Below, in pieces: positions 6,572 through 38,008 of a DNA stretch of 64,000 bases. Every line of letters begins with the position of its first letter. The first letter of the stretch is position 1. Under the pieces are notes generated by a model. The model was not told the origin of the DNA and ran no database searches. It saw only the letters and a program-made list of their open reading frames with translations. Both the position numbers and the translations under genes were made by a program. Source of the stretch: Candidatus Omnitrophota bacterium (GTDB lineage: Bacteria; Omnitrophota; Gorgyraeia; 1-14-0-20-64-10); the NCBI GenBank assembly GCA_016201735.1, contig JACQCH010000011.1, forward strand, positions 1,291 through 65,290, given 5' to 3'.

Positions 6572-6574
6572 CCC

Positions 6575-9272: not shown

Positions 9273-12798
<3,526 letters not shown>

Positions 12799-13497: not shown

Positions 13498-13527
13498 TTG
13501 ACAAAAGGGGAGAGGATCAGGTATAGT
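13498..13527 (+). promoter_or_regulatory. sigma70-like promoter (TTGACA-N18-TATAGT) upstream of giant ORF 1
   Basis: Near-consensus -35 and -10 hexamers read directly from the sequence at 13498-13503 and 13522-13527. Confidence 0.45.
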
Positions 13528-13550
13528 TTGGTCAAGTTGTAAATTTCCAC

Positions 13551-13579
13551 CCTGGGTTCCATTTCTGAACCCAGGGCGT
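13551..13579 (+). promoter_or_regulatory. 5' leader hairpin (ccctgggtt-[ccatttctg]-aacccaggg) between promoter and giant ORF 1 start
   Basis: 9-bp perfect stem read from the sequence, located in the predicted 5' UTR. Confidence 0.35.
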
Positions 13580-13599: not shown

Positions 13600-16500
13600 A
13601 TGCGTTGGAAGAATCTTTTATTGACCTTTAAAGTGACAAATGCAAACTCCCCGATGAAGGCAAGCCCAAGGGCGTTCGTTTCCCTTCTTCTCATCCTTAC
13701 TTCACTCACCACCTGGACTGTTCCTTCCGGAGCCAGCCCTGAGCCCAGTCGAAGGGCCCTTCGCCAAACCCAGGAGAGCGAGCAGTCGGGTTCAGATCGC
13801 CAGCAACTCACCCAAGCCATCACCCGGGAATCCAATCCGCCTTCCCTCGCCGCCGGCCTGGAGGAGAAGTTCACCAGCTACAAGGAATTCCTGAATGACA
13901 AAAAAGAAGGACACCAACATCACCTAGATGAGCGAGAGAAAGGAAAGGTTTCTCCGGGGAGCATGATCTGGCATGATCTGCTGGATATCCAGATCATCCT
14001 TCCATTGCTGGGGCGTGCCGCGCCCAACTGGGCGAAGAAGCATAACGCCGATCTCATCGGGCTGCTTCAAGGTGCACTGATCCGCCTGACCGATTCCTAC
14101 CAGCAGTATTACAAACAGAGAGATCCTAATTCCCAGTCACAATGGAACGTGCGGGTGATCCAGGGAGGGAATCTCCGGTCCCTCTTCGAGAAGAAATTGG
14201 GATCAGCCACCAACATCAAATGGATTCACTCATTAGGGTATCCTGGACTGAGGGTGGAAACAGTTAGGAGTCTGCTGAATGACCAGCAGGTGGATTCGAT
14301 TCTCTTCGCCTTGCATGGAAACGATCCCCCCGAGGTTGTGGTTTTCGAAACGTCTTCTCATCTTATCGAGGGCGCCAAGAAGGGGGTCAGCGTACCCTCT
14401 TATGTGGAGTTAGGCAGGCATCTCCGGTCTCTCCAAGCTAAACCGACCGGTGGACGGGCGCTCAGTGCCTATAACGCGGCGCGGATTGAAGATGATAAAC
14501 ATAAGCCCCCTTCTTCAGCGGAACCTAGGGCCGCCTCGACTGTTGGACGGGGGGCCGGCGCACAGGGATCTTCCTCGCAGGGGCCTGCGGCTCCCCAACT
14601 GTCCGAACTGGAAAAACAATTAAACAGGGATCTTTTCTATCCCTCGGCCGGAGGAGATTTGAAAGGATCGGATGGTTTCTTCATCTTCAGACAGCGTTGG
14701 TGGAGATATCCATATCCGCAGCGGGAGCAGATCCTGAAGAGTTCTGGCGGTGAACTGTGGGGAATTCTCCAGCGCCGTTTCGGAATCGGGTCGACCTACG
14801 CCATGCAGCTTCTAGAAGGGGAAGAAGGGCAGAGACTTGGGCAGGGTTATGCTTTCGCCAGCAAGGATGAGGTTCGGATCTTTGTCCAGGACGTACTGCC
14901 AACCCTTCAATCCGCGGCCCAACAACTGGCCGAGAAAGTGAAAGGGGTAGAGGAGAACGAGCGGGAGGGGATCCGATCCAAAGTGTATCAAGAGACTGTG
15001 TCGGATATCCTTCCACGGATTGACAGGAACCTGAGAGATGACCAGGAGCTTGCGCTCGCAATCGGTTACCTGACGGAGCTCATCTTCACGGGAGAATATA
15101 AGGATTCCAGGGCGCTTACGGGGCTTGCAGAGGCCCTTTGGCAAGATTTCCAGAAACCCTGGAAACCGGCGCCGCCCGAATCCGCTGGGCCGCCCGCCAC
15201 GCCGGGCGCGACCCAGGCCGGGCTGGAGGAAGAGGTAAAGGTCCTCCATGGGCACAAAGGGCCGGTGCGGAAAGTGGCGTTCAACACAGGGAAGAGGAAC
15301 AGGGGTCTGCTGGCTTCGGCCAGCGATGGAGAGATTCGAATTTGGGATAGTAAAGGAACAGCTCGCCGGCCGGTCTTTAAGCATGAACCCGATGAACAGG
15401 TGTTGGTTGTGGCTTTCCGGCGGACCGGGAGCGCCGTGCTGGTGGTAGGCAATCGATCCGCCGTCAGCTGGGATGTTGGGAATAATATGCGGTTTCCAAC
15501 GAGGATTTTCTATCCTCCGGAGCTTCGGATTGACGCCGATTCCCTTCATCCAGACAGCATCGCGTTGTCGCCTGGCCGCACCTCGATGGTGATCGCTGGC
15601 AAAGAAGGTGCAATGGCCGTCATCCAGAATCTGGATCCGGATCGCAAGCTCAAAGGGTTAGATAAGCCGATGGGGATTCTGGGGCAACTTCAACCAGAGA
15701 AGGGGGCGGTGTTGAGTGTTGCTGTCAAGCCGGAGGATCCGGAGAAGGTGAGTCGGGGAAGATACATGGATGGCTGGGTGGCAGCCCTCGGCACCAGTAC
15801 AGGAACAGTGGAGTTATGGAAACTTCTAGAGCTTGCCGACCCCTTTCACAACGTCCAGATTCAGAGCAGGAGATTCTTGGTCCTCCAAGGTAACAGCGGC
15901 AAGATCATCAGTCTGGCCTTCGATCCCAGTTCGAAGGGAAAGATTCTGGCTGCCGGGGATGATCAGGGAAGAATTCGCATTTGGAATGCAATGAGGCGGT
16001 CGTTTCAGGAGATCCCTCTCGAGGAGAAAAAGGAGATTCTGGCTCTGACCTTCAGTCCCGATGGCAGAATCTTGGCTTCGGCTGGCGAAGCAGGGACGAT
16101 CCAATTCTGGGATGCCGTCACCGGCTGGCCCTTAGGATTCCGGCGCCCCAATGAAAATCAGCCGACAAAGATCTTGAGTCTTGCCTTCAACCTGGACGGC
16201 ACCCAAGTGGCCGCCGGCCGGGACGACGGCACGATTCTCATCGCGGGTGTTCCCGTCCCTCCTGTTCCCGCCGCCGGAATGGAGGAGAGAGAGAAATTGG
16301 AATGGCAACAGAGAATCGGGCAGGCGTTTAAGGGATGGGAAGCCCGGGGTTTGATTCGGTCGGCCGATCCCTTCGTGGGGGGCTTGCTGCAGACGCGACG
16401 GGAGGTCCAGAATGAAATCAATGAGTTAAGTAAACAACCCGAATATACATTGGCCTATAAGAGCTATAGACCATTCCGGCAGGCCCGATTGGGATTCCTG

Positions 16501-19500
16501 CAAACCCTCAGTTTTCTTCTAGAGGCCCTGGGCCAGGATCCATCGAAAAGTTCGGCTCGAATTATAAAAAGAAGTGAGCCGACCCTAGAGAAGACAGGAC
16601 TGGTTTGGTTTCGTCTTGGATTCCCCATTGATGGAAGAGAGTTCCAAGCGGTTCTTAGGTTCCATGTGGATGATACAGAATACCCCTATCTTTCAATCAA
16701 CATTCGTGGCCAGACCCAGGCTTTTAAGATCAAGACGATGCCTGATAAAACAAAACAAATTAAGATACCAACGCCCTATCTCCAATTCTATACCGATACC
16801 AGCAGAGCAAGATGGAGGAAAAACATCTACTATTTACCTGGATGCTTCAACAATCTTCCGGAAGGAGCGGAAGAGCCAGAAGTCTTGGAAGCTTTCCGCA
16901 ACTTCCAAAAGGGCCTGATTGAGGCAATCCAGAAATTGCCGTTGGCCCCTCCCGCCGCCGGAATGGAGGAGCCGCTGGATTCCGACGGGGCGTTCTGGAG
17001 ACTGGAGCAGTACGCCCAGAAGGAAGAGGTCGAGATCCGTCCCGCCAGCTTCTGGTTTGACAAGGCGGGCAGGCAGATGCATCGCCGGGTTCTTGAACTG
17101 CGGCGCTCGAAGGACCCGCATGCTCTTCCGGAACTGCTGAAAATCATGGATGATCCCAGTGTGCTGGATGACGTTCGGGTGGCGGCTGCCCGGGCGTTGA
17201 TTGGCATCCCGCTCCTTGACGGTTCCGATATCGAGACGGCGCTCGATGCGGTGGAACGGTTGAGCCGGCACAATGACCATCCTCCGCGCCCTGCGCCCGC
17301 TTTGGCGCTGTACGATCCGGGATCTCCGTTGTCGCAGAGGCGGAGCCGTTTCCGAAGGCAGTTGATCGGGGTGCGCAATCATCTTATCTCTCTCCTTCAG
17401 CAGGTTCCTCCAGGCCCAGGCCTCTCGCCGGATCAGATCTTCGAGCGGCTTTCTCCCCTTTTGCAACGGCCCCCCGTCAGGGTATTGGCGGTGGGCGTCG
17501 TGGGAGTGGCCGCCGGAAGAAACGGGATTCTCTCCGATGAAACCGGTCAGGTCTATGACCACTTTATCAGCCTGAGTCCGGTCAATCGCCTGCTGTTGCT
17601 TTCTTCCTTAGACGCGACGCAGCTCCACGAGGGCGTTTTAAACCGGCTGCCTAACTGGGCTCGGAAGGGAGCGATTCCGATTTATGTCAACGAGGAGGGG
17701 TCCTCAAAAGGACGTTTGTTTCTCCAATGGGTTGAGAAAGAGAGAATAGGCCCTTCGATGGCCCTTTTCATGGACGACGATCCTGAAAGTTTCAGGGTGT
17801 TTCCGAATTCGTGGCCCGGGACGCTGGTTTATCTCGGACGCTACGATCCAGAGCTTTCCCAACTTCGCCCCAATGTCATTCAGATCAGCCGGCCGGATGA
17901 GGGAAGACCATTTAACCGGGTCGAGATTGCGCGGATCGCCGCCCTGGTTGAGTTCGCCAAACAACGGTTCGCAGGGTCGGCAACTCTTCAAGCGGCCGCC
18001 TCGGGGAATGTGTCGGGTCAGCGGCCAGTGGAATTTCTCCTCTACCAGGCCCGTTTGACCGGACCCGCTGCCGAGGATTGGAGCCCGCTGAAGGCCGGTG
18101 CTTCGGCTCCGCTCGGCGCAGGTTTGGAAGAAGCCTTCGTCACGGGGCCGGCCAAAGGATTCACGACTAAAGTAGAACGGGTAATAGAAACAGGAATCCC
18201 CGTTGCTAAACGAAAGGTCGGGCGGCTGTTGCCGATGAAGACGGTCTGGGATTTGGCCGGGGCCACGATGACCGGAGGGGCCAACGGCCTGGAGGATCTG
18301 TCCGCGGAGGATTCTTCCTCGGCGAACCGGGTCATGGAGTGGGCCAATGATGGACTGCGTTGGTTGAATGTGCGTTCTTCCATTCCAGTCATCCAGCGGG
18401 TCTGGAAACGCCTTCAGGAGGAAGGCCGCAGGGTTCTTCCGGTCGAGATGAGGGCCAACCACGCAATGACTCTGGATTTTACCGATGAGGAGCCGGCGGT
18501 TCGTCTCGACACCACGGTGGCCTCCGAGCTGAACGGGCGGGAATTCAATGCCGGGCGGCCGCTTCTTTACGCGGTCGGCCTTTTCCATGAAGCGGCTATG
18601 GCGGCTGGGTTCACCCCTCGGGAAGCAATCCATCTGACGCTGGGGCTGTACCAGGGGATGACGGCCCAGGAGCGGCAGAATCTTCAGGCGATCCTTCGCT
18701 CTATCTACATTGATCATGGAAATACATGGGCCCTTTTCCTCCAGGATGCCTCCGACTCAAAGTCCGCAGATCTGAACCCCACTGAGTTTTCTGGAATGGA
18801 TACGCTGACGTTGGAAGAACGTTTGAATGAGGAACCTTCTTCATCCGCGCGCGGGCAGATCACGGCGATCCGGAATTATCGGGACAAATGGGTCTCCTGG
18901 CTGATGGGCCAACTTCTTATTGACCTGCCGTATGACCGGATTGCTTTCCGGCAGGCCATGGAGGAGGGCAATGTGGATGCCAGACGTCGGGCCGCCTACG
19001 AGGTGATTCGGGATTACGACCGTGATGTGGAGCAGGGTAACGCCGAGCGGATGAGCACCGTGGTTAGGGAAGAATGGCTTCCGGAGGATCTGCCGTATCC
19101 GGTCCTGGTCGGCGGCCGCGAGAGCCGGGCCTTCGGCAACCAGGCGCAGTTGTTCGCCAACAGCGCTTATGTTTTGAAGACGGCGGAGATTGTCCATGCC
19201 GCTCAGCTCCTTCTTGAAGTGGCTCGGGGCAAGGAACTGCTGGCGGAATTGGAGAAGATCGCCAATGCGGCTCCGATTTCGGCGCAGGAGGAATTGAGGA
19301 AAGCGGTTGGGCGAGTCAAGGAGTTGCTGGCCCACTTGGGACCGGGAGCGGACCGGATCCGGCAATTGGTGTTCGGACCCGGCAAGGTTGTTGCCTCAAC
19401 TCAGTACGCGGGCGCGCTCCAACAATTACGAGAAAACCTGGAAATCTTCCACAGCCAGGCGTCTAAGGTGATGGAGCAGGCGAAGGATCAGGTGGTCGCG

Positions 19501-22500
19501 GCGAGCACCGAAGGGGTTTCCAGACGTCTTCCGCAGGAGAATCTAACGGTCGGCTTCCGGGAAACTCAGCAGCGACTCACCGAGTTCGCGGACAAGGGGG
19601 GCCGGATCGCCGACGCGATGGATCAACTCTGGAAAGCGATCCTTCAAGGAGAATCGTATGCGGCGGCCTACAGCGTGCTGATGCAGAGGCCATCCCCCAC
19701 CGGGTCGGAAAAGTTCAAGGCAAACGAGCTGGAGGAGAAGCCGGAGCAGGAAGAGGTCCTCCGGAAACTGACCCGTTTAGGCGGTCAGAACCTTTACATG
19801 AGCCCCAGCTACGACTGGGTGGCCGAGGCGACGGACATTATCGAAGCGGCGCCCCTCTTTATCTACGAGCGGACGATCGAAGTGGATGAACATACCGTCA
19901 CCGTGTTTGAAGTGGACCAGGAAGGGCTCGAGCAGACGGTCCGGCAGATGGCCGACTACTGGGCGCTGAACATTGACAAGACGATGGATTCCGAGCATCT
20001 GGCGCTGGCGCGCGAGATCGTGGTTCGCACGAATCCGGCCCTCATGGCAGCGGCCGCCGAGCTGATGAAGCAGGGCCTGCCCGAGGAAGCGGCGCACCGT
20101 CGAGCATTCCAGCAGATGGAGGATTCAGGGAAGCGAGAAGTCCTTCTCAATAGAGTGGCTTTGGTGGCGGCTTGGATCGCCAGTGAGTTTGACCGGCGGA
20201 TCGAGGAAGTTGAGCGGTTTACTGAAGAGCAGTGGCGGAAACAGCATTTTATCGATCGGGTGGAAGCTCTGCGGGCACTATTGCTGGGCGATTCTCGGGA
20301 GCCGATTTACACCGGTTTCTGCAAAGAGTGCATCAGCCGATCCCAGTCGAAGGCCGAAACTCTTCGAACCGAGACAGACCGCTTGCAGGGAATTGTCTTG
20401 GCGCAGCGCCGGCCTCTGCCGGCTTTCCATATGCTGACGACGGAAGCGCCCGGGCTGGTGGAGGGATTCATCCAGGTGGTTCTCGAGGAGGAGATGGCTC
20501 TGCGGAATCTCCTTCGGGGTGAAGGCCGCCGCCTCGGGTTGGATCTTGAGCAGGAAGTCAAGGATGGGATGAAGAAGTACGCCGACCGGATTCAAATCCT
20601 GGGATGGAAGGTGATCCGGGAATTCGGCTATGAGCCGATCGTCGAGCAGTACGAGGCGCAAGGATTCTCTCGTGAACGGGCGATTCAGCAGGTGATCGGT
20701 GACCATCTGTCGCTCCAGGAGGAGCTGGCACGTCTGGCGGTCCTGGTGGAAATGGCGGAGGTGGAAGCGGGACCCGGTTACATCCTCGATCCGGAGGATC
20801 CAGATCATCCCCTCGTGACGGGACGCATCGGGAAACCAGGAAGGTCCCCGGACGACAATTATACTAAGTCGTGGACTCATCATTTTGAGCAAGAAGCATT
20901 TGAGCAGGTCTGGCAGCGCAACAAGCTCGATCCCGACTTGGCCCAGCGGATAACTCAGCTCCGGCAGGATGGAAGGACTGAGGTGGAAGCGATCGATGGG
21001 GCAATCGAGGAATCGCCTCTCTATAGTCAGGAGATTAAAGACACGGTCCGCTGGTTGGCCCGGCGGAGGGCGCTGGAGAATCTAGATGAGCGGCATCCGG
21101 AACTCCATCTGCAGGACCGGGTGCGTCGCTGGTACCGGGATCATACCGCCTTGGCGCGGACTACCGCCCGTCGTGAGACGGTTTCCGCTCATTCTCTTCA
21201 CCCAAAAATGTTGGATCCTCGGTACGCCTACTGCAGCGGGACCATCCAGGAGACGAAGGATGGGAGGCTCCGCCCGACCGGTGGGCGCAAGCGGTATCAC
21301 CTGATCTACGCCAACAGCCGCGTGAACTTGGGCAAGGGTGAGAAGGAATCGGTGGAAGTCTTGCCCCAATGGGTCGGCGTCACGGATCCGCTGGCGGCGG
21401 CTCACGGCAAGCGGTTCTACGAGCTCATCAACTTTAATCCGCAGATTCGCACCATTGTGGAAACCGAGAACCTGAAGGTATCTGAGAATCAGTGGATGGC
21501 GATGGTCCGGGCGATCCGGAACGTCCAGGCCTACTTCGTCGACCGGCTGGGACGGGGGGACATCGAAGACTTGGCTTATCAGTTTGATCAGCGTGGGGGA
21601 TTGACGGCGGCTGCACTCAAGCAGGGAGAGTCTTACCAGGCCGGGCCGACCGCCGGCTACTGCATCCCGAAAGACATTTTATTCAAGCTGTTCGTGGCCA
21701 CTCATCAGGATGCCGCCAAGCTTTCTCAGATTGGAGTCCCGAAACACCTGCACCGAGGAGTCATCCAAATGGCCGTCGAGCTGGCGGCTGCTCAAGAGAA
21801 TTTCGAGACGGTAATGGAATGGGAAAGTTGGGCGGCCCTGCAGTTGCTTTCTCAGAAAGCGCTGGAGAAAAGGTTCGGCCTGGACGGCGCGAAGTCGTTG
21901 GGGAAGCATTTCGGCAGGTACATCAGCGTTACCGGTGGCATCCCCGTCTTCCACGTGACAAAGATCCGACAACTGCTGGAGTTGACCGGCGTGCCCAGTC
22001 CGCTTCTGGCGCGGCTCCAGGATCTGCACTCCGCCCTCTGGAGCAACTGGGCGGAGCGGAAATTGACCCTGCCGGCGGAACAGGTGAACCGTTCGGTGGT
22101 CTTCACCATGACCCGGCAGATTCCAGAGGCGGCGAAGGAAGCCAAGGCGCTGAATCCGACGGCCGGTATCGTTGATCCCGACCAGCTTCGGGTCCATTTC
22201 TATGGGACCTACAAGGGGGATGAAAATTATCCTTCCCAGCCGGACGTCCGGTTCGCCTGGATCATGCGGGCGGTGATGATCTTAAGCGGCTTCGGGAAGG
22301 AAGTGGCCCTTTCTCTCGACGAAGAGGGCCAGATCCTGGCCCGGCTGGCCTGGGAAGGATTCCGCCCCGATTCGAACGATCCTGAAGATCAGAAGGTGAG
22401 GCGGTACCTGGCGAAGGAGTTGGCCGGTGTTCCGGATTTCGAGCTTCCGAGGGATCAGGCGATTGTCAATCGGCTGAAGGAGGCATTCCCCGTCCACACG

Positions 22501-25500
22501 ACGGTGGGGGACATCACCATTACCGTCGTGCCTGGAGTTTCCAGTGAGGATCTACTGGGCTTCAGCTCCGAGACAAAGGAACTGTTGGGAAATGTGGCGA
22601 CCCAGACGCAGGAACTGCTTCAGTCCAAGGGGATCTCCCCGGCGCAGATGAAGGCCGATGCCCAACAGCATTGGACATTCCCGCAGGAGTGGGTGCCGTT
22701 GAATGATCTTTCACCGGAAGAACAGAGAGGGTTGAAGGAGGCAGTCGCCGGCAAGATTCATCCGTTAGTTCTGCGGCTTCGGGGCCCCGGCGACAAATTT
22801 CTGGAGGATCTGCAAAGCCAGGATGTGGTGGTTTTCTCGGTCACTCATCCGGAAATTATGGCCTTGGACCCTGCCCACTTGAGGGACCTGATGCTGGAGG
22901 GGCACCCGAACAGCGCTTTGACGGCGCTGGACTTCGTCGCGCAGGGGCGCCACCGGGTCTGGTTCGACCGGGACATCATGAACTGGTACGCGGCGGGCCG
23001 GGGCGTTGATGAAAACGGCCAGCCGATCTTGAACTGGGAGGAACGGGATTCGAAGGGGCGCCAGGCGGTCTACCGGGCGTTTGGTTTCGGGACGGATGAT
23101 TACAGACCTCTTTTGGGAACCGGTCTGCGGGAAGAAGTGGTTCGCCAGGAGCTCCGGGCCAGAGAAATGTTCAAAGGTTTCGAACAGGTGGCCGGCGCCT
23201 CCGAGGAGGATCTGCCGCGTGCCGTCCAAGCTTTCCAGGCCCGCTTCGGAGAATGGTTCGAACGGAACCAGATGGTCACGGAGGCGGATCTAGCCATCCA
23301 GTACGAACAGCAGATGCTGTCGAATCGCCGTTGGAAGCCGCGGGACGAGGCCGTTCGGGAAGCCCTGGTGGACATCACGACCGGCCTGCCGGCCGAGAAA
23401 TTCGGCAAGGACCATTGGCTGGCGACGGGCGGGATGTTCCTCTTGAATGGGGCCCCGCAGGAGCAGATCGACCGGGTCTTGGCGATCGTTCATAAAGCGC
23501 AACAGCGGATGACGGCTCCTGCCGCCGCTGGGCTGGAAGAATCGAACCCTCGGGTGGCCCTCCTCATCAAGCCGCGGCTGACTGCGGCGGCCATTCGGTT
23601 CGCCGAACGAAAAGGAGAAATGTTCTCCGTCAAGGCCAGCGAGTCTGACGCGGTGAAAGCGGTGCAGCGGCGGAAAGGGTTGGCTCTGGAAGCGACCCGG
23701 CTGGCGGCGCTCAAGGCCCGCCAGGAAGGGTTCAACTCCGTCGAGCCGATCACTGAGGCGGCGCAGATTCCCCAGGCGCTCGTTTCCGCCAGGGAACAGA
23801 TGGATCAGATGCTCGCTGAACTTCAAACCCGCACCTCGGCTTCATCAATCCACCAGCACGTCGGCCGCGTCATGGGAACGACTGTTCAGGTTCTTCGTCG
23901 TCTGGCTGAGGAGCTGATCTCCGATGAAAAGGAACGAGAACGAGTTCAAGATCAGGTCAAGAAATTATGTCAGGGCCGGGAGATAGATCTTAAGACCTGG
24001 AATATTTTTGGAGGCAGTTATGAGGACCATGGAATTCTGGCCCGGCTCTTTGAGCTGGCCGGCCCATCTCGGCGAGACGAGGTGACGGCGGCAATGGAGC
24101 TTCTTTATCTAAGCAGCGTTTTGGAAAGAACGGCCAGTTTTCTTGTCCTTCCGGCAGAAGAAGTGGATGAGCGGCTTTTGTTGCGGGCGCTGGCTGGATT
24201 TTTTGCCGAGACAATCGACGATCATTTCTACGAATACAATCCCTGGGCGTTTGACCCGAAGAGGGGACTGACCTTTAAAGATTTCTACGATGAGCTCGGC
24301 GCATTGAAGCCCGAGCGGGCGGAGGAGCTTTATCAGGTTTCCTGGGAACACCACCGGACGCTTTATCGATATGTCCGGCACTTGATTCTCACCAAGACGG
24401 AGGCCAAAAACCTCTCTATCGGAGACCAATATGATTTGTTTGGGCAGATTCGGTTGGGGCAGAGTGTTGCGCAAGATGAACTGATAGCGCAGGCGATCGG
24501 CGCCGGCGCCCCGGGTCGCTATGAGCGGCTCTGGCGGGCTTACAACCAGACCAGGGAAATGGTTTTCATCCGCAACGACGGGTTCACCCTGCCGATGGTC
24601 TTCGAAAAAATGGATCCGGAGGATCCCGAGATTCTCGACGTCCGGCATCGGGTGAACCATGCCTTCCTCGCCCCGGTGGGGCGCACTCATTACTCCCGGG
24701 CTTTGATGGAGGCCGGCCAACTCGGCGAGAATCTTTTCATCACCCGAGATGGGGAGATGGCGACACCAGCCGGGGCAAAGGGGCCGGTGCTCCAGATCCG
24801 GGACGCCCAGTTCTGGCTGACCGAGTGGCAATATCGCCAGGCCCTGATCCGCTGCCGGGGCATGAATCCTGCCGACGCGGACCGTCAGATTGCCGAGGAT
24901 CAAAGGACAGGCCGATTGACTCCGAAGGGGATCCGGGCCGCGGCCCGGTTCACCCGGCCGGTCACCATCGGATCGGTGGTTCCCATGCACCATCATTACC
25001 TGGAGCCGGAGTTGGTGGCGGCTGGTTATCCGGCGACCGATAAATCTCCGGTTCTGTATAAAGTCACCTACGACAAGTCGATCTATCCCGAAATCTACAA
25101 TCCCGCCGAGCGGACGGGAGTTCACCTGCCGGATGAAATCGACTGGTACCGGGAGGATACCGAGGCAGCGGCGTCCGCCCCGGAGGCCAAGCAGGCCATC
25201 GCCGTGGCCTTAAGGCCGTTTGCCCGGAAACACGGGATCATCGTCGCCAAGGGTTCCGCCGAATCCGGGGCCAGGAATTTTAAGCGGTTTGACTTTGTAG
25301 ATGAGCAGGGGAAACAATTCACTCAGCAGGAATTTGAAAAGCGCCTAGCCGAGGCGGCGGAATTCATTTATCAGGTCTCCACCGGGCAGAATGTGACGAT
25401 CCAGCGGGCGATCGTTGTGACGCCGATTGCCTGGATGGATCCGAAGGCGGTGCAGGAGTTCGTTGAACGGCAGATTCGGGAATGGGCGGTACCCGTCAAT

Positions 25501-30447: not shown

Positions 30448-30515
30448 TATGAAGAAGTGGTTTGGGTTAGCGGCAATGCACAGGTTAAAGCGGAGAGATC
30501 GGCGAGACGGAGGAA

Positions 30516-30626
30516 TTAATGAGCGCGTTTTTCCCGCTTACGGGTTCGCCGATCTGCCCAGCCCAGAAAGAGGACAATTAGAATCAGGATTCCTGCGGCT
30601 GCGTAAACTCCCAGAAGCCATTCCAT
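30516..30626 (-). CDS. possible small membrane protein (about 36 aa; MEWLLGVYAAAGILILIVLFLGWADRRTRKREKRAH)
   Basis: Hand-translated minus-strand ORF in the spacer between the giant genes. GGAGAA RBS 8 nt upstream. One TM helix plus a basic tail. Too short for the ORF track. Confidence 0.2.
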   Translation of the reverse strand: MEWLLGVYAAAGILILIVLFLGWADRRTRKREKRAH

Positions 30627-30640
30627 CTATTAGGTTCTCC

Positions 30641-30859
30641 TTATTGGTCGATCCACAGAACCGCTGCAATCAGGGCTACATACATTATCAACCCCAACAA
30701 CAAGATTCGCAACCGGAATGTCTGTCCCAAGACATTGCTCAGCACCCAGGCAACCAAGATGGCGTTGCCCGCATTCAGAAGAGCTTTCGCCAGATTCTCC
30801 TGTTGTTTGCGAGTGAGTCTTACGCTCATAGGGTCATTGTGCATGGTATGAATATACAA
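30641..30859 (-). CDS. possible small membrane protein (72 aa, C-terminal TM helix)
   Basis: ORF in the lower-GC inter-giant spacer. C-terminal hydrophobic segment LLLGLIMYVALIAAVLW. Divergent from giant ORF 2. Confidence 0.3.
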   Translation of the reverse strand: MYIHTMHNDPMSVRLTRKQQENLAKALLNAGNAILVAWVLSNVLGQTFRLRILLLGLIMYVALIAAVLWIDQ

Positions 30860-30904
30860 AATTTTATCAAAAATATCAATAACAAAAAGGGAGAGAAAAT
30901 TTTC

Positions 30905-33900
30905 ATGCGAAACGGTTCATTGAAGTCGTTGGTATCGCTGGTTCTTATCGTCGCATCATTCACAAGCTGGTCGACCCCGTCGTTTGCCCTGCGGCAGAGC
31001 CAGAGAGCCGACAGCAAAAGCGGGCTGGAGGAAATCCGTGTGGCCTTGGGGGATGGGCAGAATCCGCCCACTTGGGCGTGGTCAGAGAACGGCGGCCCCA
31101 TCTCTCTGCAGCAGCGAGTGAGCTTGATCTTGGAGGCGAACAGGAACACGAAAGGTGCTTTCGATTTGGGGCGGGCTGTCGCGGTGGCGGGTCACGGGAA
31201 GAAATCAAAACTCTCCAAGCGCTTTGAGCCGCTCTCCGACTATCTTGAGTCGGTAATTCCGGTCGAACTGCGAGAACTGGTTCTGGAAGGGCAGATGAAA
31301 GATGATCCGATCCTGCATCAGTCATCCCTGCTGGCGCAAGATCCCCAAGCCGCTTCCATCCTGGATTGGGTGAAAAGGAACGTTCGGTTCGTCGTGGTTT
31401 CGGATCAAGGGAACGGCTACCTGGCCGCTCAAGGGATCGCCGGTAGCCCGGAGCACACCGCGGTGATGGCCTACGCCGGCTGGCACGCCTATCCCCATTG
31501 GGAGAAAGGGATGGAGCCGGAGATGAAGGAAGCGATCCGGCGCGGCATGCGGGCCCGCCAGCAGAATCAGTCTCTGCGGCCGGATGAACTGCCAGGTCCT
31601 CCCTCGGTCTACTTGAGCGAAACCCAGATCCGGCAGTTCATGGCGGCCAAAGAGGAAGGCCGCCAAGTGCTGGCGATCAAACTGGCGCACGAGATCAAGG
31701 ACATCCTGCGCCAAGGGCGGCACGAGGAGGAAACGCCGGCCTTGACGCGCCAGGTCAACGAGTTCCTTAGCCGGAACATGCAGGCGGTCCAGCAGGTGAA
31801 GGAGCAGCAGGCGGCAGCCGCCCGTCTCCGGGAGCAACAGAAGCTGCACAAGTTCCACGCCACCGTGGATCTGACGGCGGTGGTGAAGACGAATCTACTG
31901 TCCGCTCATGCGCGACAGGAGATCGTCCGGGCGGTGGAGGATTTTCTTCACGCCCAACAGAAGAATGGAACTATCTTCGGGTTCAACGTCTTTCTCTTTG
32001 ACGGGGGAAAGATGCTGGTGGTGGATTTTGATTATCGGTTGACGGGTGAGTTAGAGAGGAATCCCAGGAAGCTGGCCGGCTATGCGGTGGAGCGTGCCCT
32101 GGATCAAGCGGCGAGACTGAATCTTTTGGAGCCGGATGGAATTCCGAATCTTCAGTCTCCCGAAACACAGAGACTGCTGAAGTTTGAATCCGGCGAGCAG
32201 CAGTTGACCCAGCGGGCCGCCGAGCCGATCGTGACCGTGCAGGCGATCGGCCTTGGAATGGGGGCTTTCAACCGGGCGATCTGGCATCTGCTCGTCGGGG
32301 ATGTCGGCCACCTGCAGGCGATCGCCGGCGACCAGGGCTTCCGGGTAAGGGTAGCCAACCTGAACGACATCCGTGAAGGGAAGGAACCGAGGTACCGGAT
32401 CTACGACTTCGATACTCCCGGCCTCAGCAAAGAGCAGCTCGAGCAGATCATTCAGCAGATTGAGCGAAATGAAATAACGGAAGAGGACCTCCCAGGAAAA
32501 TTCAGCCAGAATCTCCACCAGCTTCACCGGTTGGTCGGCGCGATGGACGAGTACGCCATCGAGGGAGTCTACCCGCTGCCGGGCAGCCGGTTCGCCTACA
32601 AAGTCGGCAAAGAAACCGTCACCCTCACCGACGAGCCGATCATCAAGGTGCACCTACATCCAAACCCGGTGGCGGAGTTCCGGGCCCAGTCCGGTGGTTG
32701 GGCGACCGGTTCCTATCAGAAGGTTTTGACCCTGCCGTACTTCGCCCCCAACGCCGACCAGACCCGCTGGGCCGGCTGGATTCCGGTTTCAAACAGGGAA
32801 GCGGAAGATTTGACCTCCCTCGATAAGGAAGGATGGCCCAGGCAGGAGATGGGTTTCGTGACCGCCTGGGGCGGGTCGCAGGACCGGGGCGGAACCGGGC
32901 GAGGCGAACCGCCGGTGACCGATGTCTTCGGCAAAAACGATCAGACGGAGATCAACCGCAAGGAGGACATGGATTTCCTCTTGGGGGTGTGGAAGGACAT
33001 AGGAGATTTTGAACCGCGGCTGACGGCAGCGGAAGCGGCCCGGCGCGCGAAGGAAGCGGCGGAGGCCTTCCCCTCCGTGGAGAAGGTACCCGCCGGCGTT
33101 CCTCCAGTCGGCGCATGGCATCCGATCCCGAACTTGAAGAAGGGTGAAGCAGACCCTGTGGTTGAATCCCTCCACGGTGAAGGCAAGCTCACCTGGAGTT
33201 TCTTCAAGGCCGACATCGGCGGCAAGGCGGGGCACGACCAGGTGCTCCAGACGCACATGGCGGCCGCCCGGGCCAAACTGGCGGAGGCCAAAGAAAAGGG
33301 ACTCATCAAGGATTACACCGTCTACTTCGTGGGAGACGATATGCAGTTGGGCATTCTCCACGACAAAGGGGTCCACAACGACGAGATTCACGCCATGGCC
33401 TGGCAGGTTTTTTGCTTCGGTTACTGGGTCTCCTGGAATTTGGGGCTGGAGCCGTATGGCCACGGGCAGGACATCCGGATCGCGGAGCTGTTTTCCAAAT
33501 ATCCGATTGAACAACACGCAAAGCTGACCCGAAGGGATGTGGAACTGTTGAAGACCGACTTTCAACAGGTAGCGACAGGCTGGGGAAACGTCCCGGGTCC
33601 GCTTAAGGCCAATGCCCAATTGGTTTCGACGTCGGCGCTGGACAAGTGGGATTTGCTCGATGCGGCTTTGAAGAAATGGGAGAGTGGGACCACCGCCGGG
33701 ACCATCGTGACCGAAGCGGTGCCGGTGGGCAATGTGACCGGGATGGGCATTGGCTGGGTTGAATCGGACGGCCAGGACGAAGAGCCGCTGATGATCTTCG
33801 GTCTGGATAAGTCGGGTGCCGGTGGTTTCAATCCCCGGCTGGTCAGGACGCTTTATAAGGCGCTGAATGCCGGGGATCTCTCCCGCGACGATCTGGTGGA

Positions 33901-36900
33901 GATGTGGGACGTCGAGGAGCAGAAGCGTGTCTTCCTCCGGATGGGGGACCACGAAGCCCAGATCCGGGGAATGGCCGCCCAGGTGAACAAGTACAACTTC
34001 AAGCGGATCATCGAAGCTAAGACAGGAAAGATTCTCGGCTGGCTCTCCTCTGAGATCCTGTCCAAGATCGGCCACGCATATGTAGGCAAGGACGACCCGA
34101 TCCTCGCTCTTCGGCAGAGGATCGGCCGCCACATGGCCGAGACGTTTAAGGATGTCCGGACCGCTCCGACACCCCAATTGGGAGACGAAGCAGGTTCGCA
34201 CAATCTCGCCAACGTCTTCCGAGCATGGTGGCAGTCGTTCCCGGGCGAGAAGAGCAATCCTGTCGGTGTGGCGATTACCTTCCTCGTTCGGAACGGCAGG
34301 ATTGAGTCAGAGGATGAGGGCTCCAAGCCAAAATACGACGAAGGTCGGAGGAGGACGGAGAGATTCAACCGAATCTTCTCCGCTGTCCAGGGGGAGTTCT
34401 CTCCGCTGGTGGCCAACCGGAAACAGATCGAGCCGTCCTATTCCCGGGCGCAGATGCTCGACAAGGCGGACCAGGCTCCGACCGCCTGGGTGGATCGGCC
34501 CTCCGTGAACGCCGGTTTGGAGGAGAATATCCCCCCTGTCTGGGTTGCGCGTCCAGAGGTGCTCGCTGGTTTTGAGCCAAAGGGAATCTTTTTCGACTTC
34601 GACGACACCCTCTGGCCCGGTTTCCCGCGGGATCTGGAGGCGGGATCGATCGCTTCCTGGGTGACGGGCCGGCCGAATCCCAGCCCGGAGATGGTGAAGC
34701 AGGTGAAAGATTTCCTCATTGAGACGAACGGAATGAGCTGGCGCGAGCGCAAGGAACAGTGGCGCTGGAACCTGCCGGGGGATCATGAGGCCTTCATCGA
34801 GCGGTTGCAAACTCAGCTCCGGCAGTTCATCCATGAGCACCATCTCACCGACCCTCGCTTCTTGACGCCGGGGGCTTCCTCACTTCTTGAAGCCCTCAAG
34901 GAAGCCGGAATTCAAATGTCGATCGTGACCGGTGGAGGCGCCGATTCCCGCCGACAGTACGCCGACGGACTGGGCATCGGCGGATTCTTCAAGCAGATCT
35001 ACGGCGGCGGCGAGAAGGTCGCCACCATCCGCCAAGGGATGAGGGCGTGGGGCTTTCAGCCGAACCAGGTGGCCATGGTCGGCGACGGGATTCCGGACAT
35101 CCGAGCGGCATTGCAGAATGGCATCTTGGCTGTGGGATTCGCGACCACCCCGGAACATCGCCGGCGGCTCATCGATGCCGGCGCCCAGGTGGTCATCTAC
35201 CGGGATTTTACCGCCTTGAAATCGATCTTGGGAGTTTTGAATATCCGTCAACGGCCTGCCGCCGGGCTGGAGGAATGGAGAGGGGGTCCTTTTCTGCGCC
35301 TGTATGTGCGGAGCGGTGATAATCGTACGCAGGGAAACGATAATCGCGCTGTGATTTATAACTTCAACCCATCCACGGGGGACCAGGTTTGGGTCAGTTT
35401 GTTAAATCGCCGCCGCCGTATGACGACCCTGGGAGCCCATTCCACTAACCCTCTGGGCGAGAGGGTTCCAGAGGATGTGGTAATCTTCCGTGGAGAGGTG
35501 ATGAGAAAGATCCTCGAAGCAGCGATGAAGAACGGGGATCTCGACCCCAAATTGTTCGAGGAGATTTGGCCGCGGGGCAGCAGGTCCCTGGAGTTCCGCA
35601 ACCCTAAGACGTTGGAGGCGCTGAACAGCCCTTGGATGAAGGAATCATTGGCTTTTCGAAAGCAGGCCGTATTAAAGAGGAAGCAAACCCATGAACCGAA
35701 GGGAGGCCTCGTCGCCACCTATCAACCTGGGGAGTGGGTCATTTTCTTTGACACCGCTGGGGACAACCAAACCCTCTGGCATCCCTTCGCAGAAGCGAGG
35801 ATCTTTCCCAGTAGCGATGATTCTGCCGCGCTCTCCTTCTCCGCGTTGAAGAATGTTCGCATTGACCGTGAAAGTAGGTATCCGTCCGCCGCCGGGCTGG
35901 AGGAGGAATATCGTGGACCTACGAGGGATGGGGCGGTCATTCTGAATCCGGATGTCCAAGGAGCGTGGCCGCCGCCGGCAGACACAGTGCGGTCCTTCAT
36001 TGCTGCAAGGCCCGGCAGCCAATTCCTGCTGACGGTCTTCAGAGGACCTTCCGGGAACCAAACGTGGGATCAAAAACAGTTTTACCTTGTCCGGCTAGAG
36101 AAAGGGAAGAAAGTCTCCTTTCTCCGCCCGGATTCCATTGAGTTAGCGGACTTCAGGAAACCGGAGAAGATCGTCCCGGTGCAGAGGGTGGTGGCTCTGC
36201 CGGATCGTGTGCGTGTCCGACCCGGTGCTCAGTGGGAGACAGCTTCCCAGCCAAGTGAAGGGGTTCGCATCGAGGATTTGCAGATGTCTATTTCTGTCGA
36301 ACCGGGAAAGGATGGTCTGCGCTTCCAGTTCGAGCAGAAGGCCAGGGATCCAGAGGCGGTCCCCCCGCTTTATTTGATCTTTCCATTGGACGCAGTGGAT
36401 GCTTGGCAAACGACGCTTCAGGCATATCGGAGTGTGAGTTTTGAGGTTCTGGCGGCATTGCGGAACCGGCCCGCTAAAAGTTTCCAGATCGACAAGGATT
36501 GGGTCGGGCAGAGTCTGCCTTCGGGTCAGGTGATTGATCAGGCGATTGCTCTGTTGAATGAGGATCCGACCCGTGTTCTTCAACTGCAATTTGGCGCTCG
36601 AGATCTATTCATCATCAAGTCCGTCGGCGACGGCTCCCGCGCCTGGATGGATGCCCAGATCGACTCCCTCAAGCAGCAGCTTACCGCCGGGTTGGAGGAA
36701 TCGAAGTTAAAACCGGAAGATATTCATATCCTGATTGTGGACGATGATCTTTCCATCCAAGGCGTGATTAATGCGGTGGTAACTTTATTGGTGAAGTTGC
36801 AAGGAATTGACGTTAGCCATATTCATGTGGCAGGAACGGTGGATGAAGCGCTGACTCTCATTGAGCAATTTAAACCTCAGTTTGCTTCCCTAGACATGAA

Positions 36901-38008
36901 TCTGAAGGATCCGGAGGGCCGGACCGGGATTGACATTGCCCGGAAATTGAAAGAGACGGACCCCTCTGCCCGGGCGATTTTGGTGGCTTTATTAGAGACA
37001 GACCAACAGATAGGCCGGAAGGATCAGGAATTGGCGCCCGGGGGCCTGCTTGCCGGGTTTGTCGAGAAGCCGAATATCATCCCGCCCCTCACGATGTTTG
37101 TGAATCGATTCCTGAAGGATCGAGTCGGATCCCCCGCCGCCGAGGAAGCGGCAGAGCCCGAAGAGATCCGGCAGGCTCGGGTCGAGGTAGATTTCGCCCG
37201 CACGCTTTTGGAGAAGACCTCCCAGGGGGCGGTGGATCAGGCCGAGCTGGCGCAGTATCAGGCTCGCCTCATGAGCGCTAAGAACAAACTTGCCTCCCTG
37301 CTCCGGCAGCAGAAGGAGGCGAAGGCCGGCGCCGAGGAGAAGAAAGAGGAAGCGCCGTCGCAGTTGGTGGTGGAGGCCCGGGCGGCGGTGAGGACCGCGG
37401 GAATCCGGCTTGCGGAGGCCACGCGGTCATACGTTTACACGACATGGCGAGACGTTGAGACGGCCGAGCTGGATCTGCGGCGGGCGGAGGTTTGGCAGAG
37501 TCACATCACACCTAACCCGATACCGCCGGAAACTTCCGCCGGCATGGAGGAGGTTCGTGCGGACCGGGTGAAGGTGACTCCGGGGGCGAAGCCGCAACTG
37601 GGCCGGGTTTTCGTGCAGGTTCGGGATGAGGCGGTTCAACCGTGGATTCATCTCTTGGGCTCCGAACCGATCTGGCTGTCGGACACCCTCAGAGGGGCTT
37701 CGGAGGATCTGCTCCATCAGTATCTAGGAGCAAACGCTGGGGAGGCCGACATTGCCTTCGTCGTTCCTTCGGTGATTCGAGAGGCTCCGGACCAGTGGAA
37801 CCGGCAGTTCCAGGGATACCGATTGCCTGCGGTGGAAGCGCCGTTGGGATTAATTCAAAAGTTGCAGGCGGATGAGTTGGCGGCGCTCTTGGGCCACTTG
37901 CAGCGGGTCCATGCGGAGCGAGGTTTCATGGGAGGCGTGATCCATCTGCTGGAGATCAGCGTGGAAGAACATGAAGGAGAACGGACTCTCCTGATTCGAT
38001 CCGCGTAG
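30905..38008 (+). CDS. giant mosaic multidomain protein 2 (about 2368 aa; signal peptide, FBP aldolase/phosphatase-like, HAD phosphatase and REC receiver modules separated by the same A-G-L/M-E-E junction motif)
   Basis: ATG 30905 is preceded by an AT-rich region and a GGGAGAG RBS and encodes a signal peptide (MRNGSLKSLVSLVLIVASFTSWSTPSFA). The ORF-track start at 30401 is read-through of the spacer. Six junction motifs and several domain signatures are present. Confidence 0.75.
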   Translation: MRNGSLKSLVSLVLIVASFTSWSTPSFALRQSQRADSKSGLEEIRVALGDGQNPPTWAWSENGGPISLQQRVSLILEANRNTKGAFDLGRAVAVAGHGKKSKLSKRFEPLSDYLESVIPVELRELVLEGQMKDDPILHQSSLLAQDPQAASILDWVKRNVRFVVVSDQGNGYLAAQGIAGSPEHTAVMAYAGWHAYPHWEKGMEPEMKEAIRRGMRARQQNQSLRPDELPGPPSVYLSETQIRQFMAAKEEGRQVLAIKLAHEIKDILRQGRHEEETPALTRQVNEFLSRNMQAVQQVKEQQAAAARLREQQKLHKFHATVDLTAVVKTNLLSAHARQEIVRAVEDFLHAQQKNGTIFGFNVFLFDGGKMLVVDFDYRLTGELERNPRKLAGYAVERALDQAARLNLLEPDGIPNLQSPETQRLLKFESGEQQLTQRAAEPIVTVQAIGLGMGAFNRAIWHLLVGDVGHLQAIAGDQGFRVRVANLNDIREGKEPRYRIYDFDTPGLSKEQLEQIIQQIERNEITEEDLPGKFSQNLHQLHRLVGAMDEYAIEGVYPLPGSRFAYKVGKETVTLTDEPIIKVHLHPNPVAEFRAQSGGWATGSYQKVLTLPYFAPNADQTRWAGWIPVSNREAEDLTSLDKEGWPRQEMGFVTAWGGSQDRGGTGRGEPPVTDVFGKNDQTEINRKEDMDFLLGVWKDIGDFEPRLTAAEAARRAKEAAEAFPSVEKVPAGVPPVGAWHPIPNLKKGEADPVVESLHGEGKLTWSFFKADIGGKAGHDQVLQTHMAAARAKLAEAKEKGLIKDYTVYFVGDDMQLGILHDKGVHNDEIHAMAWQVFCFGYWVSWNLGLEPYGHGQDIRIAELFSKYPIEQHAKLTRRDVELLKTDFQQVATGWGNVPGPLKANAQLVSTSALDKWDLLDAALKKWESGTTAGTIVTEAVPVGNVTGMGIGWVESDGQDEEPLMIFGLDKSGAGGFNPRLVRTLYKALNAGDLSRDDLVEMWDVEEQKRVFLRMGDHEAQIRGMAAQVNKYNFKRIIEAKTGKILGWLSSEILSKIGHAYVGKDDPILALRQRIGRHMAETFKDVRTAPTPQLGDEAGSHNLANVFRAWWQSFPGEKSNPVGVAITFLVRNGRIESEDEGSKPKYDEGRRRTERFNRIFSAVQGEFSPLVANRKQIEPSYSRAQMLDKADQAPTAWVDRPSVNAGLEENIPPVWVARPEVLAGFEPKGIFFDFDDTLWPGFPRDLEAGSIASWVTGRPNPSPEMVKQVKDFLIETNGMSWRERKEQWRWNLPGDHEAFIERLQTQLRQFIHEHHLTDPRFLTPGASSLLEALKEAGIQMSIVTGGGADSRRQYADGLGIGGFFKQIYGGGEKVATIRQGMRAWGFQPNQVAMVGDGIPDIRAALQNGILAVGFATTPEHRRRLIDAGAQVVIYRDFTALKSILGVLNIRQRPAAGLEEWRGGPFLRLYVRSGDNRTQGNDNRAVIYNFNPSTGDQVWVSLLNRRRRMTTLGAHSTNPLGERVPEDVVIFRGEVMRKILEAAMKNGDLDPKLFEEIWPRGSRSLEFRNPKTLEALNSPWMKESLAFRKQAVLKRKQTHEPKGGLVATYQPGEWVIFFDTAGDNQTLWHPFAEARIFPSSDDSAALSFSALKNVRIDRESRYPSAAGLEEEYRGPTRDGAVILNPDVQGAWPPPADTVRSFIAARPGSQFLLTVFRGPSGNQTWDQKQFYLVRLEKGKKVSFLRPDSIELADFRKPEKIVPVQRVVALPDRVRVRPGAQWETASQPSEGVRIEDLQMSISVEPGKDGLRFQFEQKARDPEAVPPLYLIFPLDAVDAWQTTLQAYRSVSFEVLAALRNRPAKSFQIDKDWVGQSLPSGQVIDQAIALLNEDPTRVLQLQFGARDLFIIKSVGDGSRAWMDAQIDSLKQQLTAGLEESKLKPEDIHILIVDDDLSIQGVINAVVTLLVKLQGIDVSHIHVAGTVDEALTLIEQFKPQFASLDMNLKDPEGRTGIDIARKLKETDPSARAILVALLETDQQIGRKDQELAPGGLLAGFVEKPNIIPPLTMFVNRFLKDRVGSPAAEEAAEPEEIRQARVEVDFARTLLEKTSQGAVDQAELAQYQARLMSAKNKLASLLRQQKEAKAGAEEKKEEAPSQLVVEARAAVRTAGIRLAEATRSYVYTTWRDVETAELDLRRAEVWQSHITPNPIPPETSAGMEEVRADRVKVTPGAKPQLGRVFVQVRDEAVQPWIHLLGSEPIWLSDTLRGASEDLLHQYLGANAGEADIAFVVPSVIREAPDQWNRQFQGYRLPAVEAPLGLIQKLQADELAALLGHLQRVHAERGFMGGVIHLLEISVEEHEGERTLLIRSA
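33180..34440 (+). other. fructose-1,6-bisphosphate aldolase/phosphatase (FBPA/P, archaeal-type class V FBPase)-like domain in giant protein 2
   Basis: Collinear resemblance to FBPA/P as recalled from memory: SFFKADIGGKAGH (vs SVIKADIGSLAGH), MAAARAKLAEAKEKGLIKDY, VGDDMQLGILHDKG, HAMAWQVF, YVGKDDPILALRQ (vs YVGKDDPVMIVRLQ), VRNGRI. Confidence 0.55.
34570..35200 (+). other. HAD-superfamily phosphatase module in giant protein 2
   Basis: HAD motif I FFDFDDTLW and motif IV MVGDGIPDIRAA. Bounded by junction motifs at 34508 and 35258. Confidence 0.65.
36700..37100 (+). other. response-regulator receiver (REC) module in giant protein 2
   Basis: ILIVDDD acidic pocket, phospho-acceptor context FASLDMNL, and a conserved Lys in GFVEKP. 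Begins 4 residues after the junction motif at 36686. Confidence 0.65.

Follow-up and report, generated by a model that had tools for sequence, protein, structure and literature searches.

We analysed a 64,000-nucleotide stretch of the Candidatus Omnitrophota contig JACQCH010000011.1, hereafter the window, which carries two giant genes in tandem on the plus strand. The products of both genes contain a recurring pentapeptide, [AS]-G-[LM]-E-E, which we refer to as the junction tag. An earlier note on this DNA had described both the genes and the motif. Giant gene 1 (13600–30447) encodes 5615 amino acids from the ATG at 13600 and ends in ...LEALRAA. The same gene has been called from its second methionine (Met19, ATG 13654), giving 5597 amino acids, in an independent Logan assembly of run SRR12113409, whose copy is 100% identical to gene 1 across 12.2 kb. 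For gene 2, the longest frame spans 30401–38008 and opens with a GTG at 30401. The true start is the ATG at 30905, because a AGGGAGAG ribosome-binding site and AT-rich DNA lie upstream of it and because the resulting product of 2367 amino acids is identical to the NCBI protein MBI3615283.1, named ‘fructose 1,6-bisphosphatase [Candidatus Omnitrophica bacterium]’. Both giant genes described before are therefore real. Gene 2 spans 30905–38008, and its product ends in ...LLIRSA. A comparison of protein 1 with protein 2 revealed neither internal repeats nor paralogy; their leaders were the sole match.

The junction tag occurs nine times in protein 1 and six times in protein 2. All 15 copies are in frame, and every site listed in the earlier note is present. 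The motif had been given there as A-(A/S)-G-(L/M)-E-E, but this six-residue form matches only 8 of the 15 sites, whereas the five-residue core matches 15 of 15. In protein 1, the tag reads AGLEE at 13852–13866 (residue 85), 15217–15231 (residue 540), 18118–18132 (residue 1507), 23527–23541 (residue 3310), 27529–27543 (residue 4644), 29314–29328 (residue 5239) and 29971–29985 (residue 5458), and AGMEE at 16273–16287 (residue 892) and 16957–16971 (residue 1120). In protein 2, SGLEE at 31019–31033 is followed by AGLEE at 34511–34525, 35261–35275, 35891–35905 and 36686–36700 and by AGMEE at 37538–37552. A sixteenth, variant copy, AGAEE, is found at 37325–37339. Residue shuffling (2000 rounds) gave expected counts of 0.053 in protein 1 and 0.014 in protein 2 (about 0.07 together, with a maximum of 2), in line with an initial estimate of well below 0.1. 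The core motif was absent from all other six-frame open reading frames (ORFs) of at least 100 amino acids in the window, as had been claimed for the other window proteins. Proline, alanine, serine and threonine account for a mean of about 6.3 of the 12 residues upstream of the tag, compared with about 3.2 expected. The enrichment that had been reported before every copy is thus true of the average, but two copies do not have it. Synonymous codons are used in the window tags (GCC, GCT, GCA or AGC, then GGN, then CTG, TTG or ATG, then GAG or GAA).

Both proteins begin with a predicted Sec signal peptide. By inspection, that of protein 1 (MKASPRAFVSLLLILTSLTTWTVPSGA, 13654–13734) is similar to the leader of protein 2 (MRNGSLKSLVSLVLIVASFTSWSTPSFA, 30905–30988, followed by LRQ) and to the leaders of relatives, and the ending ...P-[AS]-[FYW]-A-L-[RK] recurs family-wide. 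All family members with an intact N terminus have a Sec-type leader of this kind, ending in ...P-[AS]-[FYW]-[AG]-L-[RK]. The first G-x-E-E follows about 0–40 residues past the leader in essentially all of these intact members, often as ALRxxG[LV]EE. In protein 2 it lies about 10 residues past the AxA site of the leader, contrary to the proposal that the first copy of each protein stands 40–70 residues past the signal peptide. No module precedes this first tag and yet the tag is there, which argues that it belongs to the N termini of modules and not to linkage as such. Cysteine is nearly absent from the two giants, at 8 of 7973 residues (0.10%) compared with 0.71% in the other window genes (p = 1e-15), and the same depletion is seen in the giants of relatives (0.035%, compared with 0.89% in their neighbouring genes). 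This depletion fits proteins that leave the cytoplasm. A hydropathy scan of the giant proteins detected no transmembrane helices beyond the leader.

At the other end of these proteins, the last tag usually lies 144–185 residues before the C terminus, where it opens a C-terminal domain. At least three families of such domains exist, with the endings ...IRSA, ...LRAA and ...LEAA, and hhalign detected no relation between the three. The C-terminal module of protein 1 (29971–30444, 158 amino acids, ...LRAA) is homologous to the C-terminal modules of the related proteins P0193 and P0178. That of protein 2 (37538–38005, 156 amino acids, ...IRSA) belongs to a family found at the C termini of P0169, P0152 and P0186 and of proteins at the related loci L081, L083 and L090. 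An AlphaFold model of the C-terminal domain of protein 2, made from a 4-sequence alignment, had a mean predicted local distance difference test score (pLDDT) of 52.5 and was too poor for fold comparison.

The tag marks module boundaries, and modules are shuffled between proteins. An exhaustive HMMER search of 1.84 billion representatives, with the final 1165 residues of protein 2 as the query, returned 291 matches. The matched stretches begin and end at the tags, delimiting the HAD module (residues 1–250 of the query), two modules at 251–460 and 461–725, the receiver (REC) module (726–1009) and the C-terminal domain (1010–1165). The HAD phosphatase module (34511–35260, 250 amino acids) retains its DxDxT, T, K and GDGxxD residues. 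The 210-amino-acid module after it (35261–35890), whose fold is unknown, begins with W-x-G-G-P and occurs in at least eight other proteins, twice in P0153. The next module, of 265 amino acids and likewise of unknown fold (35891–36685), is common to P0173, P0182 and P0188. In the REC module (36686–37537, 284 amino acids), the receiver domain begins 10 residues past the tag, the DD...D...KP residues are kept, and the variant AGAEE lies within a helical charged tail. The order of modules differs between proteins: the 210-amino-acid module is the first one of P0175 but a late one in P0184, and its order relative to the WD40 module is reversed between these two proteins. At L081, a full-length formate–tetrahydrofolate ligase (FTHFS) fits exactly between two tags (E = 1e-184, profile positions 11–538 of 556).

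The earlier note had suggested AlphaFold modelling of the junctions. AlphaFold2 on the HAD module and its flanks (24 sequences) gave a core with pLDDT above 90 and placed both flanking tags in segments of pLDDT of about 40–80, a few residues from the folded domain. The copies at 34511–34525 and 35261–35275 are therefore located in low-confidence flanks, on the N-terminal and C-terminal side respectively, that are predicted to be flexible linkers.

Many distinct module families, none of them dominant, tile the window giants: WD40, HEAT-like, GHMP kinase, FBPase_3, HAD and REC, together with unannotated modules. In protein 1, a WD40 β-propeller of 352 amino acids (15217–16272) directly follows the tag at residue 540, and its homologues stand elsewhere in the module order of P0184 and P0175. 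A 387-amino-acid module with a weak HEAT-repeat match follows the tag at residue 1120. The next two tags, at residues 1507 and 3310, open modules of 1803 and 1334 amino acids without a recognisable family. A domain resembling GHMP kinases and galactokinases (27712–28407) lies inside the 595-amino-acid module at 27529–29313. In protein 2, the first module (31019–34510) is 1164 amino acids long and has a fructose-1,6-bisphosphate (FBP) aldolase/phosphatase (FBPase_3, 33185–34435), covered end to end, as its C-terminal part. The segments between tags had been described as single-domain sized, which is true of the WD40, HAD and REC modules but not of the segments of 1803, 1334 and 1164 amino acids. 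For the 219-amino-acid module that follows residue 5239 of protein 1, taken before as a GHKL domain, N and G2 boxes are visible by eye, but neither hidden Markov model (HMM) nor PDB searches returned a match. PDB sequence searches with the three largest modules gave only noise. Word-index searches for homologues returned generic WD40 proteins alone for a 1510-residue query and no matches for a 936-residue query. The heptapeptide GYCIPKD (21655–21675, residues 2686–2692 of protein 1), which contains one of only seven cysteines in protein 1, resembles the catalytic-cysteine motif of UDP-glucose/GDP-mannose dehydrogenases; it had no HMM or PDB support. Across the family, the recognisable modules are FBP aldolase/phosphatase, HAD, GHMP and PfkB kinases, glucose-6-phosphate isomerase, transaldolase and 2-keto-3-deoxy-6-phosphogluconate (KDPG) aldolase, and further FTHFS, serine hydroxymethyltransferase (SHMT), pyridoxal phosphate enzymes, GNAT, REC, WD40 and HEAT. 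A MAFFT alignment of mixed modules (A2), which was anchored on the shared tag and misaligned, was not used.

We next consider the tag in relatives, as related loci were fetched through homologues of a small secreted protein encoded upstream of the giants (12814–13464). Between the window giants and the large proteins at the syntenic position in L001, L081, L083, L085, L090, L091, L093 and L095 there is hardly any sequence similarity, and tblastn gave a single REC-like match. Nonetheless, these fast-evolving proteins carry a G-x-E-E tag, which was seen in at least nine related contigs. It takes the form AAG[TMAV]E[QE] in L001, AG[LFP]EE in L081, [AS]GLEE in L090 and L091, AG[QA]EE in one gene of L083 and [AS]GLEE in two others, and G[LVM]EE in L093, a locus that we examined only after the hypothesis had been formed. 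That related giant genes would carry the tag was thereby borne out: its density was 2.92 per 1000 amino acids in 29 related proteins (46,182 amino acids), compared with 0.065 in flanking housekeeping ORFs (30.7 thousand amino acids). A logo of 152 sites showed proline at positions −3 and −2 and alanine at −1, followed by the tag itself (A 84% or S 16%, G 100%, x as L 51%, A 24% or M 12%, E 100%, and E 93% or Q 7%), with no conservation downstream. The codons at x in relatives include TTA, CTT, CAG, ACG and GCG, and the first glutamate is often GAA. Relatives thus encode the tag with many different codons, which indicates, as the earlier note had proposed, that conservation acts on the peptide; the GGAGG and NTG strings of the window are not conserved.

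Other lineages appear to use other tags. Some large proteins with the same HAD module, one of them annotated as Candidatus Omnitrophota, lack AGxEE and have recurring motifs of their own: RTST 12 times in P0157, [AS]SSP 12 times in P0162 and R[RA]SPSG 5 times in P0165. In P0180 and P0183, RTSP[ML] occurs 4–5 times and flanks the HAD module on either side. It therefore seems to be a general design of such proteins that a short peptide, specific to the lineage, punctuates them, and different tags in lineages that share the HAD module are as expected if each tag co-evolves with its reader.

The surroundings of the giant genes are conserved. Before them in the window, all on the plus strand, lie tig, clpP, an aminotransferase gene, serA, purA (whose closest relatives are from Omnitrophota metagenome-assembled genomes), a H+-pyrophosphatase gene and the gene for the small secreted protein. 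After them come a MNT/HepT toxin–antitoxin pair and genes for a peptidoglycan-binding protein and OmpA, followed by a GH57 gene, uppS, cdsA, dxr, rseP, ispG, proS, nusA and infB. The small secreted protein (216 amino acids, 134 homologues, no Pfam family) is 100% identical to NCBI HY211_02070 of Candidatus Omnitrophica. Its family is Omnitrophota-specific and is always encoded after the H+-pyrophosphatase; L092 and L094 retain it although they have no giant genes. The interval between this gene and the peptidoglycan-binding/OmpA pair is empty in L092 and L094, encodes two proteins of 947 and 1844 amino acids in L093, and encodes strings of proteins of 1–3.5 thousand amino acids or more in L001, L081, L083, L085, L090, L091 and L095. 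Since the backbone is conserved and the content of the interval varies, the giant genes form a variable island in a conserved chromosomal backbone.

Other features of the region were also noted. The MNT-type nucleotidyltransferase and HepT RNase pair (38042–38922), located between gene 2 and the peptidoglycan-binding/OmpA genes, is absent from that position in L093, and in L089 a Zeta-toxin gene follows the gene for the small secreted protein. This spot appears to be an insertion hotspot. L081 has two tandem H+-pyrophosphatase genes (5564–9987) where the window has one. By eye, a near-consensus promoter (TTGACA, 18 nucleotides, TATAGT; 13498–13527) lies 5′ of gene 1, and a perfect 10-bp hairpin (about 13550–13559 with 13567–13576) lies in its presumed 5′ leader. 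The 457-nucleotide spacer between the giants contains, on the minus strand, an ORF of 72 amino acids (30641–30859) encoding two hydrophobic helices, with sigma-70-like hexamers just 5′ of it (30879–30851); it is possibly a small divergent gene for a membrane protein. Scanning the window for tRNAs and Rfam families gave no matches.

How might the tag work? It is strict, independent of the fold that follows, placed in flexible linkers, present where no linkage is needed and replaced by other peptides elsewhere, and these properties together are best explained by a site that is read in trans. We tentatively favour, with somewhat less than even confidence, the view that the tag is a site for endoproteolytic processing of exported modular polyproteins. 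The almost cysteine-free modular products, which on this model would be exported, have four parts: a leader ending in ...P-A-F-A-L-R, a first tag, a variable string of unrelated modules, and a C-terminal domain of about 155–185 amino acids that usually ends in a small non-polar residue. [A/S]-G-x-E-E precedes each module, in a short linker that is rich in Pro/Ala and presumably flexible. Complete cytoplasmic-type enzymes are among the modules, and the tag would serve as a peptide-level punctuation mark. After export, an endoprotease would cut at or next to the tag and release the modules as separate proteins, such that the genes would be bacterial polyproteins. More speculatively, a cut between [A/S] and G would leave the modules with a small C-terminal residue, like most natural C termini, and would suit a protease that recognises C termini. 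The final residue is alanine in six and valine in three of nine complete proteins in the fetched loci; by comparison, 8 of 37 ordinary window proteins end in alanine or valine. The endings seen (L081, L083, L090, L093 and L001 also contribute) include ...LRAA (window positions 30436–30444), ...IRSA (37997–38005), ...TSA and ...LEAA, and three are ...QV or ...GV.

A wider version of the processing model is possible but doubtful. It holds that complete enzymes of central metabolism and signalling are carried in exported polyproteins whose lineage tags (AGxEE; RTST, RTSP and SSSP) are cut by co-evolving proteases, so that modules would be set free beyond the cytoplasm, perhaps inside a host or prey cell. 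The enzymes that would be carried in this way are FBP aldolase/phosphatase, glucose-6-phosphate isomerase, transaldolase, FTHFS, SHMT, sugar kinases and HAD phosphatases.

Several observations weigh against processing. The earlier note had read the products as polyprotein-like precursors cut by a dedicated protease or, alternatively, the motif as a docking or modification site linking modules; the boundary part of that proposal stood, given where homology ends, the shuffling of modules, the relatives and the linkers, but no dedicated protease was found. We detected no protease domain in either giant by Pfam or NCBIfam (E ≤ 0.01–1) or by PDB sequence search, and in 16 relatives no peptidase family was among the 25 most frequent of 40 Pfam families. 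The only proteases encoded in the 64-kb window are ClpP and RseP, which we rejected as the dedicated protease because they are housekeeping genes in the conserved backbone. The small secreted protein (12814–13464) was also rejected as a dedicated protease or partner because L092 and L094 keep it without giant genes. About 60% of the giant-protein sequence is unannotated and may hide an embedded protease. In addition, it is hard to see a physiological reason for exporting ATP- and cofactor-dependent enzymes, unless their site of action is a host cell or a special compartment, and the signal peptides that imply export were assigned by eye, without a predictor. The C-terminal rule is not universal, given the proteins that end in valine rather than alanine. 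Three window modules of 1.1–1.8 thousand amino acids contain internal domain boundaries without a tag; the FBP aldolase/phosphatase, for example, is preceded within its module by about 720 residues and has no tag at its start. The tag is therefore not found at every domain. Finally, x varies less inside a single gene than across the genome (in L083, 10843–20564, it is Q or A in gene a and L in genes b and c), which hints at concerted evolution and not only at selection by a single reader.

One alternative, which we consider rather unlikely, is that the tag is recognised but never cut. The proteins would then stay intact, like beads on a string, and the tag would be a docking or modification site present once per module, used perhaps by a periplasmic chaperone or by a factor for outer-membrane translocation or anchoring, for binding of metal ions, or for enzymatic modification. 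This explanation draws on the same evidence as cleavage, namely an invariant, lineage-specific peptide that lies in flexible linkers, is independent of fold and follows the leader, and it accounts for the negative protease searches. Moreover, every chain has a single leader and a single C-terminal domain, regardless of how many modules it contains, which suggests that the chain is handled as a unit. However, no candidate partner was found, the small secreted protein being disfavoured by the same two loci without giants, and an acidic pair after a small-residue/glycine pair is more like protease sites than known docking motifs, although this is weak evidence.

Another conceivable but improbable reading treats the tag as an evolutionary seam. 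Ancestral secreted proteins with a single module (leader-ALRxxGLEE-module) would have carried it as the conserved start of their mature chain, and it would persist, or be homogenised by gene conversion, because modules are gained and lost in frame by recombination at the tags; it would have no biochemical role in the fusion. Consistent with a seam, all leaders are followed by the same G-x-E-E, the tag is exactly where homology breaks, modules are shuffled and x is homogeneous within a gene. The window codons (GCC GCC GGN NTG GAG) are also more uniform than conservation of the amino acids requires, with no GCG among 22 alanine codons and every leucine encoded by CTG or TTG. Most of this uniformity, however, reflects ordinary codon-pair bias, because in the window GCC accounts for 59% of alanines before glycine and CTG or TTG for 73% of leucines before glutamate; we therefore rejected a constraint at the DNA level as the main source of the uniformity, of which a mild residual is left. 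Furthermore, about 15 conserved nucleotides with synonymous differences are too short for homologous recombination. Over 150 sites, G, E and E remain invariant in front of modules that have diverged beyond recognition, which points to purifying selection on the peptide, and different lineages keep different, equally strict tags.

A nucleic-acid signal, in which (C/T/A)TGGAGGAR would act as an internal Shine–Dalgarno-like pause or its NTG as an internal start, with separate translation or folding of the modules as the outcome, matches the window (TGGAGGA in 13 of 15 copies, NTG at x in 15 of 15) but is very improbable, as the x codons of relatives and their frequent GAA destroy both GGAGG and NTG, the distance to a downstream start codon is not consistent among copies, and the CTG or TTG preference is that of ordinary leucines before glutamate.

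Returning to processing of exported modular proteins, we compared the window giants with known systems. They belong to the recently described class of long, enzyme-tiled Omnitrophota proteins; what our analysis adds to that class is the tag, the conserved ending of the leader, the scarcity of cysteine and the C-terminal domains. In the long ‘multi-enzyme metabolic cluster’ proteins of Omnitrophota, many Pfam families tile one chain (bioRxiv 10.64898/2026.06.07.730766). West-Roberts et al. described giant Omnitrophota genes whose products are suspected to be processed, and stated that the cleavage points are unknown; no cut sites are known (bioRxiv 10.1101/2023.11.21.568195). The window giants resemble these proteins in phylum, in their HAD, receiver, putative histidine kinase-type ATPase and sugar kinase domains and HEAT/WD40 scaffolds, in fast divergence, and possibly in having a signal peptide or membrane association. 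They differ in their modest size for the class (2.4 and 5.6 thousand amino acids, near its lower limit) and in having a predicted leader but no transmembrane helices. Neither paper mentions a junction motif, linker or cleavage site, and the words ‘motif’, ‘linker’ and ‘cleav’ do not occur in the 2026 text. Text searches of the literature likewise returned no mention of the tag, its boundary role, the leader ending, the cysteine depletion or the alternative tags, so that the searchable literature agrees with the initial impression that no system with such a signature has been described.

Processing of large secreted proteins is known from other bacteria. MARTX toxins carry effector modules separated by unstructured linkers and are cut at leucine residues, releasing the modules (PMC2900308, PMC5218395). 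Like the window giants, they are very large secreted bacterial proteins with interchangeable modules. By contrast, MARTX toxins have RTX repeats, type I secretion and a cysteine protease activated by inositol hexakisphosphate, whereas the window giants have a Sec-type leader, a strict pentapeptide and many housekeeping-type enzymes. Pfam and NCBIfam gave no match to RTX or hemolysin-type repeats in the window giants, and neither Peptidase_C80 nor another peptidase was found in them at E ≤ 0.01–1, with large regions unannotated. The gingipain and HagA polyproteins of Porphyromonas, which are cargo of type IX secretion (T9SS), combine a Sec leader, several domains, a C-terminal domain for a second export step and proteolytic maturation (PMC4804311, PMC5445135). 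The likeness lies in the Sec leader, the multidomain build and the C-terminal domain. Gingipains, however, are from another phylum and cut themselves at arginine or lysine, and the Omnitrophota giants have at least three unrelated C-terminal families; no T9SS C-terminal sorting domain was found in the window giants by Pfam or NCBIfam. The features that define MARTX toxins, T9SS cargo and sortase substrates were looked for and not found, and the window giants are therefore none of these. As for sortase (LPXTG) substrates, the tags are internal and are followed by acidic residues and folded modules, and there is no C-terminal transmembrane segment.

The P97/P102 adhesins of Mycoplasma hyopneumoniae are cut at S/T-X-F|X-D/E in disordered regions by a protease that is unknown (PMC3322551). 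In these large surface proteins a short conserved cleavage motif, with an acidic residue after the scissile bond, lies in predicted disordered regions, which recalls the junction tag. The motif, organisms and families are different; the adhesin sites follow a loose pattern established by mass spectrometry, whereas the tag is strict and was defined from sequence only. A viral-type embedded protease was not found in the giants by Pfam, NCBIfam or PDB sequence search, in which about 60% of residues were left unannotated. In polymorphic toxins, a short peptide (VENN in CdiA, DPxGL in Rhs) marks the junction of interchangeable modules, once per protein before a variable toxin tip. Homology breaks at the motif both there and here, but the junction tag recurs before every module.

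Whether the Omnitrophota giants act as single chains or in pieces is an open question in the literature, and the tag is the first concrete candidate for a cut or recognition site. Because it is strict, clade-wide and located at module boundaries, it predicts junctions precisely, so that semi-specific peptides from them can be sought in metaproteomes that already exist. It also offers a rule for splitting the giants into units small enough for structure prediction, and a handle on the reader enzyme by phylogenetic profiling across lineages with AGxEE, with RTSP/RTST, with SSSP or without a tag. The finding also exposes an annotation problem: full-length core enzymes lie inside leader-bearing, nearly cysteine-free putative polyproteins, one of which is named ‘fructose 1,6-bisphosphatase’ in NCBI, and such embedded enzymes affect metabolic reconstructions of these host-dependent bacteria. 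Should the wider version of the processing model hold, these genes would be to cells what the polyprotein strategy is to viruses, and the lineage tags would provide a general grammar for parsing giant bacterial proteins.

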